IMG/VR virus record: IMGVR_UViG_2713896907_000008 | Location: 1 to 33,825 of that record | Length of the DNA: 33,825 bases | Strand: one strand, 5' to 3' | Origin: a virus | Lineage: Duplodnaviria; Heunggongvirae; Uroviricota; Caudoviricetes | Shown here: positions 24,489 through 29,602 of the stretch, piece by piece | Numbering within the stretch: position 1 is the first letter of the stretch | Layout: each line of letters begins with the position of its first letter | Notes under the pieces: model-generated | Seen by the model: only the letters and a program-made list of their open reading frames with translations | The model's database searches: none | Told to the model about the DNA's origin: nothing | Position numbers and translations under genes: made by a program

Positions 24489-25550
24489 TTAATATTCAAA
24501 ATTATTTTCTTCAATAGAGAATTCAATCCCTCGGGATAACTTATCAATATTCACATCAAATTCGATATCTGTTAATTCACCATTCTCGATTTCATACATA
24601 ACTTCAATCTCAATATCGAAACTAATCTCTTGAACTTCAGTTCGTGTGGTTGACTCCATTGGAATCATTACTTTATCTTCGCTATCCCAATACCCATTAT
24701 TAAAGTCTGGACCAGAAACAGTAACTTCAAAATCTACAGGAACAGAGAAGGTCGCTAGACAATAATTATTGTTAATCTTAATTATTGATGGTTCAAAGTC
24801 ATCAATATTGACGACTTCAAATGAATCCAATTCAGCGTCTTCCCAAGTTGAAACGTTATATCCATCGGCATCATTGAGTTGGGCAATTACGTCCGCTCTT
24901 ATGTCTTCACGTTTGCTTTCGATAAACTGCATCAATTTATTACTTAATTCGTTTGTATGCGTATTGTATTCACCTAGAAACTTATCAAGTGAATCAACTT
25001 GATGAAGATTGTTTTTACCATCACAATAATTTTTTAAGTCACTATCCTCAGAAATGATATACACATCTTCATCATTAACAAATCGCTCTACCGCAGCTAA
25101 AGTGATTGCATCAGGAAACTCACTCTTTTTCTTATTTTGCCCAAATGGTGGTTCTTTGCCAAAGTATTTATCTAAAATCTCATTAAGATCTATCACTTCT
25201 ATTGGAGCTAATTTGGCGTGACATCCTTTCAAAAAATCATCAAAAACTTTTTGTGCTGCTTCGTGAATTTCATGTTCGTTAAATTGCTGAAAAAAACCAT
25301 GGAGCGGTCCATTATCAATACTATTCAAAAGCCTAGCTTTTCTTTGTACTGTGTTTATAGCCTGCAGAGCATCCTTTATTGATTCCTCTATTTTACCTTT
25401 TACTTCTCTCTCTACAACTGTAGTTGTAATTAAGACTAAATCACCTTTCGCACATAATTCATGGAAAGCTTTAAATGCTACCCCCTCAAAATGAAGACCA
25501 GCCTTTACGTACGTTTGTGTGTCAATAAATACCTTATTTGTTTTAAGCAT
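24489..25550 (-). CDS. cargo protein, 353 aa: PIN-like N-terminal domain plus acidic C-terminal domain of unknown function; candidate defence/abortive-infection nuclease
   Basis: AT-rich relative to flanking phage genes; own AGGA ribosome-binding site and terminator. Candidate PIN acidic residues: D in VFIDTQ, E in REVKGKIEE, D in EFPDAITL, D in IISEDSDL. Confidence 0.6.
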   Translation of the reverse strand: MLKTNKVFIDTQTYVKAGLHFEGVAFKAFHELCAKGDLVLITTTVVEREVKGKIEESIKDALQAINTVQRKARLLNSIDNGPLHGFFQQFNEHEIHEAAQKVFDDFLKGCHAKLAPIEVIDLNEILDKYFGKEPPFGQNKKKSEFPDAITLAAVERFVNDEDVYIISEDSDLKNYCDGKNNLHQVDSLDKFLGEYNTHTNELSNKLMQFIESKREDIRADVIAQLNDADGYNVSTWEDAELDSFEVVNIDDFEPSIIKINNNYCLATFSVPVDFEVTVSGPDFNNGYWDSEDKVMIPMESTTRTEVQEISFDIEIEVMYEIENGELTDIEFDVNIDKLSRGIEFSIEENNFEY

Positions 25551-25676
25551 ACTAATCCTAATAAGTTTTAAGGTCCGCTACAATTGTTTATGTTTATTTT
25601 TTATCAATAATCATACGTAGTTAAGATTATCCATGTCGAAAAATTAAATCAACTTCAATTTATCCTTAAGCGCGCG

Positions 25677-25695
25677 CTCGTATCCCCGCCACGCC
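25677..25695 (-). other. candidate cos cohesive-end site
   Basis: Minus strand reads GGCGTGGCGGGGATACGAG; the first 13 nt match the P2/186 cohesive end as I recall it (GGCG(A/T)GGCGGGGAAAGCA-). Confidence 0.45.
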
Positions 25696-26074
25696 TGCCC
25701 GCTTTATGCAGTGGTTTTCATGCACATGCATGACATGAGCAAAAGCCCGCCAGTTCTGGCGGATCTGAGCAAAGACGATCCTCAATCGATCATGCGATTT
25801 CATGCAGCATAGTCATGCACTGTCAAGGAAGTGAAAATCCGTATCTGAATGGCCACTTGAAAAACGGATCATACGGGTTTACAAAGATGAATGTTCGCTG
25901 TGAACGGGAAGCGGAAGTTAGCTTTCAGATAACATAATCCATATGCACGAGAACCTCTAAAATAGAATGGGACACCTAAGCGGGGTACTTACAACGATTC
26001 TTTCCATATTCACAGTTAACACTCTGTTTGGCGTATTTTTATTCAAATAGCAAACACCAATAAAAGGAGTTTCC

Positions 26075-26410
26075 ATGAACAATATTCCCCCTATACCACA
26101 GTTAGGAATTTATGTCTCAAAAATCGATCCCACCCTACGTATCACTGTAACCGATGTTGATATTGTTGATGGTGAGGATGATTCTCCTGATGATGAATTG
26201 TTTTATTTAGTCCACTGGATCGAGGGGGAAGATGAAAGTGATATGACAGCAATGGGATTTGAGCTAGACCCAGTAGAGTGGCAGGCTTTCGTTGAATCTG
26301 AGCAATTAGTGTTTGAGCGTGATCCGTACATGGATTCAATCCCCGAAAATTCAAATTTGGCAAAGATTCGGGATTTTCTCATGAAGACTAAACAGAATGA
26401 TCATTCGTAA
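26075..26410 (+). CDS. hypothetical acidic protein, 111 aa
   Basis: AAAGGAG ribosome-binding site; very Asp/Glu-rich; occupies the position of P2 old/tin between cos and the SOS genes. Confidence 0.55.
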   Translation: MNNIPPIPQLGIYVSKIDPTLRITVTDVDIVDGEDDSPDDELFYLVHWIEGEDESDMTAMGFELDPVEWQAFVESEQLVFERDPYMDSIPENSNLAKIRDFLMKTKQNDHS

Positions 26411-26602
26411 GTGTAAGCATTCATCAGGAAAATGGTTTTGTAAGTGAATCATCAACTTTTAGAGAGTCTCAGACACTCCCACTTCTGCTTCTGACACAAA
26501 GCGGACGATCACTTATCAAAATAACCGCCCACCTTACGCCTTATTTCACTCATTGCCCAAACTAGCCCCCATCAGAATGAATCCTCCTGGGGGCAACGTT
26601 TC

Positions 26603-26836
26603 TTAATGCAGCCAGCTGTCGTCCTCCCACACCTTCTGCATAATTTTCATCACTTGTTTTCTTTCTTCATCCAGTTGCAGTCCGGTTAGTTCCACACCGT
26701 TAGAGCTACCTTTGCGAATGCGAATTACCGTTTTGGGATACAGGGGGCGCAGATTGCGGTAAAGCTCGGATTCAAGGGCGTCCAGGGTAGACTGGCTAAT
26801 CTTCTGCTCTTTATCGATCATTATTTCAATGCGCAT
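26603..26836 (-). CDS. dinI: DinI-family protein
   Basis: MRIEIMIDKEQ…KIMQKVWEDDSWL matches the DinI pattern; own GAGGTG ribosome-binding site overlapping the upstream stop. Confidence 0.75.
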   Translation of the reverse strand: MRIEIMIDKEQKISQSTLDALESELYRNLRPLYPKTVIRIRKGSSNGVELTGLQLDEERKQVMKIMQKVWEDDSWLH

Positions 26837-26846
26837 AAAAGTCACC

Positions 26847-27035
26847 TCAGCTGATGACATCCATTGAGCGGTTGTATTCGTGGCTTCTGATTTTTGCCAT
26901 AAGTTCATCAGTCAATTCAGAAACCCACTGCAGAGCCAGCCCCTTCTCTTCATCACTACACTCACTAGCCGCTACAAGCTTAAGAAAAAAATCAATGCGC
27001 TGAAGCTTCAAAGACTCCAAAAAATAGTCCTGCAT
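26847..27035 (-). CDS. small protein, possibly the N-terminal part of a Tum-like antirepressor
   Basis: 62-aa ORF with an AGGAGG ribosome-binding site, about 41 bp downstream of a LexA box. Confidence 0.45.
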   Translation of the reverse strand: MQDYFLESLKLQRIDFFLKLVAASECSDEEKGLALQWVSELTDELMAKIRSHEYNRSMDVIS

Positions 27036-27075
27036 CTTTCCTCCTATGACACCAAAACAATACTGTATGCATAAC

Positions 27076-27095
27076 CACTGTTTATATTTACAGTA
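27076..27095. promoter_or_regulatory. LexA (SOS) box
   Basis: CACTGTTTATATTTACAGTA: CTGT-N8-ACAG with an AT-rich spacer, upstream of the minus-strand 62-aa/DinI pair. Confidence 0.7.
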
Positions 27096-27187
27096 TATAA
27101 TAATCTTACTGATGTAAAACGTTTTTTTACGTTCATCGGCCTGATATGCCTGGTATTATTAAGAGCACGAATTGTTAACCCGCGTAA

Positions 27188-29602
27188 TTAATACAGGTTC
27201 CGCCACTTATCATCTTCCTTCAGACGCTGGTTCCGATAGAAGATACGCAGGCCTGCTCCTGACGGAATACTGCCGCCGCGAAGGAGCAAATCGACTTCTT
27301 TCTCGCTGCCATCAAATCCCCTGGACTTCAGTTCATAGACGAGCTGCTGTCGCTGATGGTCTGTAATTCGCTGTTTGTAGTCTTTACGCCGTTTCGGTTT
27401 CACCTGGCGTAACCTTGCAGCCAGTTCCCGGCGCTCTTTTTTGCTCATACTGTGCAGGTAATCGTGCAACTCCTTGTCATTCATACGGGTAATATCCGTT
27501 CTGGAGTCCCCATCAGCTGATTTGTCTTTCCCTTGTTGGTTCAAATTTTCAGCAAGGGGACAGTTATTGCCACGAGTCCAAGGGGCGCAAGCGCCCTGGT
27601 CGGCTGCCGCCTCCTGAACGTCAACGGCCTTACGAACCATTTTCCACTTCACTGCATGAGTGCAGATCTTGCCCTCTGCAATGGGTGACCAGATGCCATA
27701 AATACGAATACCGTGATCGCCATAGGCGGTCGGCTCTTCGTTAATTTCATAAGCGGTTCTGATGAGGTGATATTTACGGGGAACCAGTACACCTCCCTGC
27801 TTCATGATATAGGTGGCAAAACAACCAGCATCAGCAGCAGCCAGAATGGCATCAAGGCGCGGGTTATCCAGTACCGGCACACCTGCTTTTTTGTCACCCT
27901 GCTGCCTTGCCGCCTGACCAGCCAGCAATCGCAGTTCACGGTAAGCCTGACGCCCCGGAATACCAAAGAAGCGGAATTGCTGAACACGATGCAAAGACGC
28001 CCAGGCATTCACGTATTCAGCGTTATCACGAAGAGATTTACCCGTTTCCTTGCTGATCTCGCCAGCCAGACCACGCCCGTCAATGTTCTTACTGATGTAT
28101 TTCGCTATGTAGCTTGTCGGCGTTCCTTTGCGCGGGTTAATCAGCTCAGACTTAAAGCGCGGCCCCGTGTTATTGCCCAGCTCCTCGCGGTCTTCACGGA
28201 TAGCAAACTTACGCAACAATGCAGTAATGGCGCGGCGGTCTTTTTTGCGCATGAAACACAACAGGTGCCAGTGAACTGTGCCGTCGTGATGCGGCTCAGC
28301 CACCCGCACGCCATACCAGCGCAACCCGGCTTTGTGCATCGCCTTACGAAATGCAGCAAACATACCGACCAGATAATCGCTGCTTTGTCTTACCGTCGCG
28401 TTTTTCCAGGTCGGGTTGGGTCTGCCGTTATTGAGCGTGGAATGGAAACGTGACGGACAGGTAATGGTGTAGAAAACGGCGCAGTCACCGCGCATTTCCG
28501 CGATAAGCTCCAGACCTTTAACACAGGCCATCATCTCATTGCGGCGATGCGCCGGGTTGCTGCAGCTGGCGTTTACCACATCTTCCATATCCAGCGCGTC
28601 TCCGTCTTCGTTCACCAGTTCATGAGAACGGAAAAACTCCAGCGACTTACGGCGCTGCTCACGTTTATGCATCACAGCTTCATAGCTGACATAGGGAGAT
28701 GCTTTTTTGCTGACCAGGCAGACAGCACGCAACTGCTCTTCCCGCCATTCGCAACGCATCTTCCACAATTTCCGATACCACCAGTCGGCGCACAGCATAC
28801 GCGCCAGCGAGCCCGGAATGAGTTCATAGGGCACTGGTTTACGGCGGTTTCTTTTCCGACGGAGTTGCTCAAACGCAGGCGGGATGACATCCAAACGTAG
28901 GGTTTCCGCTGCCACCTTTTCCCATGTCTTGCGGATTTCTTCTGGCTTAACATCATCGGTGGCGTACAAATCACCACAAGCGGCATCAAGACACATGCTC
29001 ATATGCGCAGCGACAAGGGTAGACAGGCGTTTCACCTGATCCTGACTCATTTCAGGCAGGATCAGCAGGCCGTCCAGCCCTTCATGGCTTGCCATAAAGC
29101 GAAAAGAAGTGGATAGCTGACTGTCGCGTACATGCTCCAGTCGTTCCAGACATGGCTTAATCGTCTCACGCAAATAGCGGGAATAAGCCTTTGGCCTGCC
29201 CAAGCTGCTGAAGTATTCAATACGTTGCATCAGCGGCTTGCTGATATGGGAAGGCTGGGCGTTGACGTCAGCCAGAATGACCATGTCTGGATTAAAACGC
29301 TGCTGCTCATGCGCCAGCTTTGCCCGGCTAATGAGCTTATCCTGCTCCATTTCGCGCTGGACAGGATCACGGGATTCATTAAAGAAATAACGCTCCCAGA
29401 CCTGCTCACTCAGTGCCTCGCGGCGCAGTTGTTCCTGCTCGTTATCGGCAACATACAGAGTGATCAGGTTTGAAAGTGCAGACTCCGGCGCAACTTCCGC
29501 CGGGTCCAGATAAGGGTTAATGGCCTTTTTCGGGCCGTTCCATGAAAATGATGCAGCGGCCTCGTTAAAGCCGCTAGAGTTGCTCATATCGTCATGACTC
29601 AT
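27188..29602 (-). CDS. A: replication initiation protein A (rolling-circle type)
   Basis: 804-aa ORF at the end of the early operon; size and position as P2 gpA. Confidence 0.8.

Follow-up and report, generated by a model that had tools for sequence, protein, structure and literature searches.

A probable SOS-induction operon with separate tumA-type and tumB-type genes in a Fels-2-like prophage of Escherichia coli with 186-type immunity

The SOS operon of phage 186 is transcribed from p95, a LexA-repressed promoter located downstream of gene A and annotated as TTCACA-18-TACTGT, in which the -10 hexamer is formed by the first six bases of the LexA box. The operon encodes Tum, a single fused polypeptide of 146 aa whose target is the 186-type CI repressor. 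Tum is known to bind CI, to block its attachment to the operators in a reversible manner and to be needed for induction by the SOS response. The 186 record describes Tum as 'repressed by LexA; inhibits CI DNA binding' and places within tum an internal GTG start, from which a separate 77-aa DinI-like product that 'modulates SOS induction' is made.

Phage PSP3 carries the two parts of Tum as separate genes: a LexA box is followed by tumA, which codes for a protein of about 60 aa, a stop codon and tumB, which codes for a DinI-like protein of 77 aa. The GenBank notes read 'similar to 5' end 186 tum; UV induction of prophage' for tumA and 'similar to dinI and 3' end of 186 tum' for tumB. In the record of the Salmonella phage Fels-2 (Felsduovirus) the DinI gene is noted as similar to PSP3 TumB. 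The split Tum arrangement was already described by Lemire et al. 2011 (PMC3121763), who cite Bunny et al. 2002; antirepressor activity of PSP3 TumA is quoted there second-hand, from a personal communication. The title of the paper by Bunny, Liu and Roth 2002 (J Bacteriol 184:6235, PMC151935) attributes the lethality of a lexA null mutation to Fels-2.

[quoted passage not shown] They follow the same logic as the locus described below: a LexA box controls the joint transcription of a small antirepressor and a DinI homologue, and the repressor is bound and not cleaved. The Gifsy phages are, however, lambdoid, their gene order is reversed (dinI first) and their antirepressor and repressor families are unrelated to those found here.

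The DNA analyzed in this work, a stretch of 33,825 nucleotides referred to as the window, is a segment of the E. coli chromosome that contains a Fels-2-like prophage; a 2.8-kb part of it is 99.1% identical to an E. coli genome. Two short adjacent ORFs preceded by a LexA-like box very probably constitute the SOS-induction operon of this P2-family prophage, the immunity of which is of the 186 type. The relevant features are the following:

27188..29602, minus strand: P2 gpA-like replication gene (804 aa), an ORF directly upstream of tumA, named from the annotation of the Fels-2, 186 and PSP3 homologues
27113..27118, minus strand: putative -35 hexamer TTTACA of the SOS promoter (p95 equivalent), read from the sequence, 17 nt upstream of TACTGT
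27090-27095, minus strand: putative -10 hexamer TACTGT, the first six bases of the LexA box, proposed by analogy with 186 p95
27076..27095, minus strand: LexA box TACTGTAAATATAAACAGTG, with an intact CTGT-N8-ACAG core, a 20-mer with 3 mismatches to TACTGTATATATATACAGTA
27061..27080, minus strand: putative, degenerate second LexA-like box CAGTGGTTATGCATACAGTA, sharing 5 nt with the first box and homologous to the box position of 186 and PSP3
27040..27045, minus strand: ribosome-binding site AGGAGG of the 62-aa ORF, four bases before its ATG
26847..27035, minus strand: tumA-type gene for a 62-aa predicted antirepressor (ORF; phrog_698, E=5.9e-38; profile links to Tum)
26603..26836, minus strand: tumB-type gene for a 77-aa DinI-family protein (Pfam PF06183)
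26565..26594, minus strand: GC-rich hairpin (GCCCCCA...TGGGGGC) followed by TAGTTTGGG, 9 nt after the DinI stop codon
32932..33825, plus strand: CI immunity repressor of the 186 type, 297 aa, the predicted target of the antirepressor (match to 186 CI; phrog_4 repressor)

The tumA-type gene closes the early region, just 3' of the gpA-like replication gene and behind a putative promoter of its own. The gpA-like gene ends at 27188 and tumA starts at 27035, which leaves a gap of 150 bp that holds the LexA box. The order gpA-like gene, tum is the same in 186, PSP3 and Fels-2, and the p95 operon of 186 occupies the equivalent place downstream of gene A.

The closest relative is the Fels-2 pair STM2728 and STM2726.1, which also follows the gpA-like gene directly; promoter, LexA box and both ORFs share 96.6% DNA identity with the window. 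At the protein level STM2728 is 96.8% identical to the 62-aa protein and the DinI-family protein is 100% identical. The two phages differ in their hosts, Salmonella for Fels-2 and E. coli for the prophage of the window, and in what comes after the pair: homology ends exactly at the DinI stop codon, where Fels-2 continues with a 243-aa ORF and the window with a DUF8087 ORF and a PIN_12 protein. In 186, but not in the window, tum is followed by orf97, and no similarity between its product and that of Fels-2 STM2726 (both 243 aa) was detected by BLASTP.

A preliminary description of this DNA had placed a LexA box at 27076-27095, upstream of a 62-aa ORF with a strong ribosome-binding site; the coordinates, the distance of 41 bp between box end and ATG and the AGGAGG motif were all found again when checked in the sequence. 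The CTGT-N8-ACAG core occurs only once in the 33.8-kb window. By chance the bare core is expected 0.52 times per window and was present at least once in 38 of 100 shuffled sequences, so that the core alone proves little. A 20-mer with 3 or fewer mismatches to the consensus was reached in none of the 100 shuffles, and at this level the predicted LexA box is beyond chance.

The conservation of the box was surveyed in 33 loci from different Enterobacterales species, fetched for encoding a homologue of the 62-aa protein; a core with at most 1 mismatch was counted as a LexA-like box. Thirty-one of the 33 loci had such a box, at a distance of 38-97 bp upstream of the homologous ORF. Of the other two, one is a truncated copy and one is a contig in which the upstream sequence extends for only 53 bp. 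The box has been retained even though the bases of the spacer vary and synonymous sites of the adjacent ORF are saturated.

In an alignment with Fels-2, PSP3 and 186, the LexA box of the window is identical to that of Fels-2 and is displaced by about 15 bp in the upstream direction from where the LexA site of 186 is annotated. The box of PSP3 is at the 186 position, 38 bp from the start codon as against 58-60 bp in the window. The GGAGG of the ribosome-binding site is kept in all three phages. It is at this 186/PSP3 position that the degenerate second box of the window is located, its centre 15 bp from that of the first. Two of the four core bases of its left half-site are wrong (GTGG for CTGT). 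In the upstream regions of some of the other loci (L007, L021 and L022) the core of the second box has only 1 mismatch, as in CAGTGTATATATATACAGTT of L007. The placement of the second box suggests that the operator has slid or has been duplicated in the course of evolution.

A simple sigma-70 scan called no promoter in this region. Following the layout of p95, we propose the promoter TTTACA-17-TACTGT, whose -10 hexamer is weak, as it is in 186; at the level of the sequence, the LexA operator thus overlaps its promoter. The absence of a canonical promoter call, together with the frequency at which the bare core arises by chance, might suggest that the box is a fortuitous AT-rich palindrome and that expression of the operon is constitutive or driven by the transcript of the A gene upstream. 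We regard this as very improbable in view of the 20-mer match that the shuffled sequences never attained, the constant location of the box in 31 of 33 diverged loci with variable spacers and the LexA site annotated in the equivalent promoter of 186.

According to the preliminary description, 186 Tum is a LexA-controlled protein of about 146 aa with a DinI-like C-terminal half, and its equivalent in the window appears as two ORFs (62 + 77 aa). Both statements hold. The 77-aa protein shares 41% identity (E=3e-24) with a stretch of Tum, residues 71-145, that corresponds to its C-terminal 75 residues. The 62-aa protein gave no BLASTP alignment with either 186 Tum or PSP3 TumA, and its similarity to the Tum N-terminus emerged from profile comparisons. 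It matched phrog_698 (5.9e-38), phrog_8554 (1.1e-8) and phrog_1993 (0.002), and the same three families were matched by Tum residues 1-70, in the order phrog_1993 (1.5e-23), phrog_8554 (3.4e-12) and phrog_698 (5.9e-6), with Tum residues 6-44 aligned to positions 6-44 of the phrog_698 profile. With hhalign, 32 aligned members of the 62-aa family, taken from the phmmer relatives described below, were compared with 22 aligned Tum sequences; residues 2-44 were paired with residues 2-44, in register, at 95.4% probability and E=2e-8. PSP3 TumA belongs to a different family, phrog_1993, the one that the protein of the window reaches only at E=0.002; PSP3 TumB, on the other hand, is 78% identical to the 77-aa protein.

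A phmmer search of the 62-aa protein against 1.84 billion representative sequences gave 67 matches, nearly all of them short (about 35-130 aa). Judged from the matched positions, no protein with the layout of Tum, that is an N-terminal match with a long C-terminal extension, was listed, and the link to Tum therefore rests on the PHROG profiles and hhalign. By these profile comparisons, the 62-aa protein is a remote homologue of the N-terminus of 186 Tum over 43 residues.

AlphaFold2 predicted the 62-aa protein to be a two-helix hairpin with helices at residues 2-23 and 28-61 (pLDDT 89). A PDB sequence search with the TumA profile found no match, and Foldseek of the predicted hairpin against BFVD returned nothing below E=0.2, as expected for a two-helix hairpin. 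The family has no Pfam or NCBIfam model, is of 'unknown function' in PHROGs and is called 'hypothetical protein' in RefSeq. The role of a CI-binding antirepressor that we assign to it is derived from 186.

The ORFs of the window are only 10 nt apart and in 186 both parts belong to one 146-aa protein, which raises the question whether a single 186-like tum gene was recently interrupted by a nonsense or frameshift mutation and is now a decaying pseudogene. The preliminary description had proposed to look for a frameshift relative to intact homologues. The survey argues otherwise: a full-length DinI-like ORF starts 9-12 nt after the tumA stop codon, with a start codon of its own, in 17 of the 33 species-level loci, and the same layout is seen in Fels-2 and PSP3. 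With the window copy as reference, dN/dS of tumA against the homologues of 29 other species-level genomes and Fels-2 was 0.03-0.13, in comparisons where dS was mostly above 0.8, near or beyond 1, as found under strong purifying selection. Moreover, residues 45-62, which form the tail of the 62-aa protein, bear no relation to the linker of Tum (aa 45-70), so that neither could arise from the other by a simple frameshift, and the phmmer matches listed included no protein of the Tum layout. The conserved layout, the purifying selection and the unrelated tail and linker lead us to reject the frameshift, which we consider hardly credible; from the sequence comparisons, the two-gene form is a stable, selected arrangement.

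In the remaining loci the DinI part was variable. Three of the 33 had a partial, shifted or frameshifted DinI match, L020 and L037 being truncated or frameshifted. In 13 loci the LexA box and tumA were present with no DinI-like gene within 2.5 kb downstream, which points to tumA as the core of the module and to the DinI-like gene as an optional accessory. The loci lacking DinI (L010, L012, L021, L024, L029-L036 and L038, with the match at about 2501-2686 in each) come from Pantoea, Erwinia, Tatumella and some Citrobacter, Klebsiella and Lelliottia.

The 77-aa protein matches the Pfam DinI family PF06183 over the whole model (positions 1-63 of 63; E=6.6e-23; 81.3 bits against a cut-off of 24.2) and the solved structure of E. 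coli DinI, 1GHH (E=2.7e-6); the DinI-family assignment made in the preliminary description is thereby borne out. It shares with chromosomal DinI the fold family, the length class and the MRIE N-terminus, and differs from it in being phage-borne and coupled to a predicted antirepressor. Against the NCBIfam DinI equivalog NF007893 it scored 42.7 bits, far under the cut-off of 111, and it is for this reason considered a phage paralogue of the DinI family (TumB type) and not DinI proper. As a member of this family it probably modulates RecA filaments in the way DinI does.

The start of the 77-aa ORF fits the DinI N-terminus (MRIE..., here MRIEIM) and is the first available start in most of the homologous loci; an alternative start at 26908, giving an ORF of 101 aa, was rejected. 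As the preliminary description had also stated, the ORF has its own ribosome-binding site overlapping the upstream stop: the motif GAGG at 26848-26845 overlaps the TGA of tumA at 26849-26847.

A small hairpin, GTCATCAGCTGAGGTGAC (26841-26858, minus strand), covers both the stop codon of tumA and the ribosome-binding site of dinI; it was the only match of the terminator scan. It was not taken as a terminator and is treated as a chance match or a coupling element. In the latter case the hairpin could occlude the dinI ribosome-binding site, so that translation of TumB would be coupled to termination at tumA. The GC-rich hairpin at 26565..26594 was not called by the terminator scan. Its predicted RNA fold has a free energy of -24.1 kcal/mol (z=-1.7), it lies outside the region common to Fels-2, and it is possibly a weak or partial terminator.

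The immunity region is organized as in 186. The early region encodes a DNA methylase and Fil-like, CII-like and Cox/Apl-like proteins (PHROGs), with CI divergent. The prophage carries a cognate CI of the 186 type, neither of the P2 C type nor of the self-cleaving lambda type. No similarity between the Cox/Apl-like protein and 186 Apl was detected by BLASTP; PHROG 575 still classes it as Cox-like. Over aa 115-294 the repressor shares 32% identity with 186 CI (E=1e-33); a second match, to the CI N-domain, covers aa 10-79. Its identity to Fels-2 CI is 41%. The preliminary description had predicted SOS-inducible derepression, unlike classical P2, and this prediction follows from a switch that is of the 186 type and not of the P2 C type.

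The repressor of the window is an unusual variant. Whereas 186 CI (192 aa) and Fels-2 CI (210 aa) have one HTH N-domain each, it has two tandem HTH N-terminal domains of the 186-CI type (aa 5-79 and 110-175) ahead of a single CI C-terminal domain. The repressor starts about 125 bp away from the divergent Cox/Apl gene, a spacing that is also seen in 186 and makes the long form look real. A CI-like coding stretch of some 282 aa in the Klebsiella phages 4LV2017 and Kp4860-7 aligns to residues 6-286 of this repressor at 44%. The response of a tandem-HTH repressor only 32% identical to 186 CI to TumA is a prediction.

From the work on 186, PSP3 and Fels-2 we infer how the module would operate. In an undamaged lysogen LexA would occupy the box at 27095-27076, overlapping the putative -10 hexamer and start region of the p95-like promoter, and would keep the operon off. 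Upon DNA damage, active RecA would promote LexA self-cleavage and the promoter would fire, yielding one transcript from which the helical-hairpin protein of the TumA type and, by its own ribosome-binding site, TumB would be translated. TumA would then bind CI non-covalently and, without cleaving it, keep it from its operators; the early lytic promoter would be derepressed, allowing expression of Apl/Cox and CII, replication and excision. TumB would be an accessory, dispensable for the switch, that tunes the SOS signal by DinI-like modulation of RecA filaments.

For the last point there is a parallel in the Gifsy prophages, in which non-polar deletions of the dinI homologues had no significant effect on induction (Lemire 2011, PMC3121763). 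Together with the many tumA loci that have no DinI, this suggests that TumB only tunes the response. The same observations bear on the possibility that the 62-aa protein is no antirepressor, the LexA-controlled unit being a phage dinI accompanied by a short leader or an unrelated co-transcribed ORF, and any induction being achieved in another way. The family's lack of a Pfam or NCBIfam model and of a PHROGs function, the remoteness of its similarity to Tum and the direct evidence for TumA activity, a personal communication quoted by Lemire 2011 (PMC3121763), would agree with such a view. It would nevertheless predict the opposite of what was found in the 13 loci that keep tumA and the LexA box and have lost, or never had, DinI; neither does it account for the in-register profile homology to the Tum N-terminus, the strong purifying selection on tumA, the 186 record, in which the DinI-like part of Tum only modulates induction, or the Gifsy deletions. 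We consider this possibility improbable and retain the reading of the 62-aa protein as a predicted TumA-type antirepressor.

The segment comprising box, tumA and dinI was present at a coverage of at least 80% in 1,082 of 5,426 complete E. coli genomes, where it is annotated as 'hypothetical protein' and 'DinI-like family protein'. The CI immunity type of the window was found in only 18-31 of the same 5,426 genomes. Across Fels-2-like phages whose CI is only 41-68% identical to that of the window, TumA is 96-98% identical; within these CI proteins, conservation is highest in the HTH N-domain. The near-invariance of TumA next to divergent CI proteins, and a module present in about 1,080 genomes as compared with 18-31 for the CI type, indicate that TumA may recognize a conserved CI surface, which, given the conservation within CI, would most plausibly be the HTH N-domain.

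Trans-acting crosstalk between antirepressors and the repressors of other prophages is, as a principle, already published for Gifsy phages. A speculative extension, which we hold to be rather unlikely on the sequence comparisons just described, is that TumA is an antirepressor of broad specificity that recognizes the HTH N-domain and could induce in trans heteroimmune P2-like prophages resident in the same cell. The tandem-HTH CI could in that case have an altered stoichiometry with, or sensitivity to, TumA, for instance through a decoy domain that raises the threshold of induction.

Beyond the operon, positions 24489-26602, between the DinI stop codon and the portal gene, form a variable cargo slot. 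It holds a gene for a 353-aa PIN_12-domain protein (24489-25550, minus strand) and, convergent to it, one for a 111-aa DUF8087/phrog_17127 protein (26075-26410, plus strand). The two gene starts are separated by about 520 bp that contain no ORF. At the same position other E. coli carry HEPN(LA2681) and PIN or DUF2971 and PIN. PADLOC gave no match for the PIN_12 and DUF8087 cargo. These may be uncharacterized defence or toxin genes at a known hotspot of P2-like phages.

The left end of the window contains a gene of the ybjL-type aspartate:alanine antiporter family (936-2621, plus strand) and the RybB sRNA gene (2701-2779, plus strand; Rfam RF00110, 106.5 bits). The first phage ORF starts near 3166, and the integrase and the other junction are outside the window. 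The prophage apparently adjoins rybB at its 3' end, possibly the attachment site.

The module is already known: it is the ordinary SOS-induction switch of P2-like prophages of the Fels-2/PSP3 type, made of TumA and TumB, which are fused in 186. Its description for Fels-2 and PSP3 dates back more than two decades, and the arrangement has been re-derived here from raw sequence. What remains is a gap in annotation, as the 62-aa family is still labelled 'hypothetical' although it occurs in about one fifth of complete E. coli genomes. The 62-aa gene together with its LexA box would mark a P2-like prophage as SOS-inducible, in contrast to the non-inducible P2.
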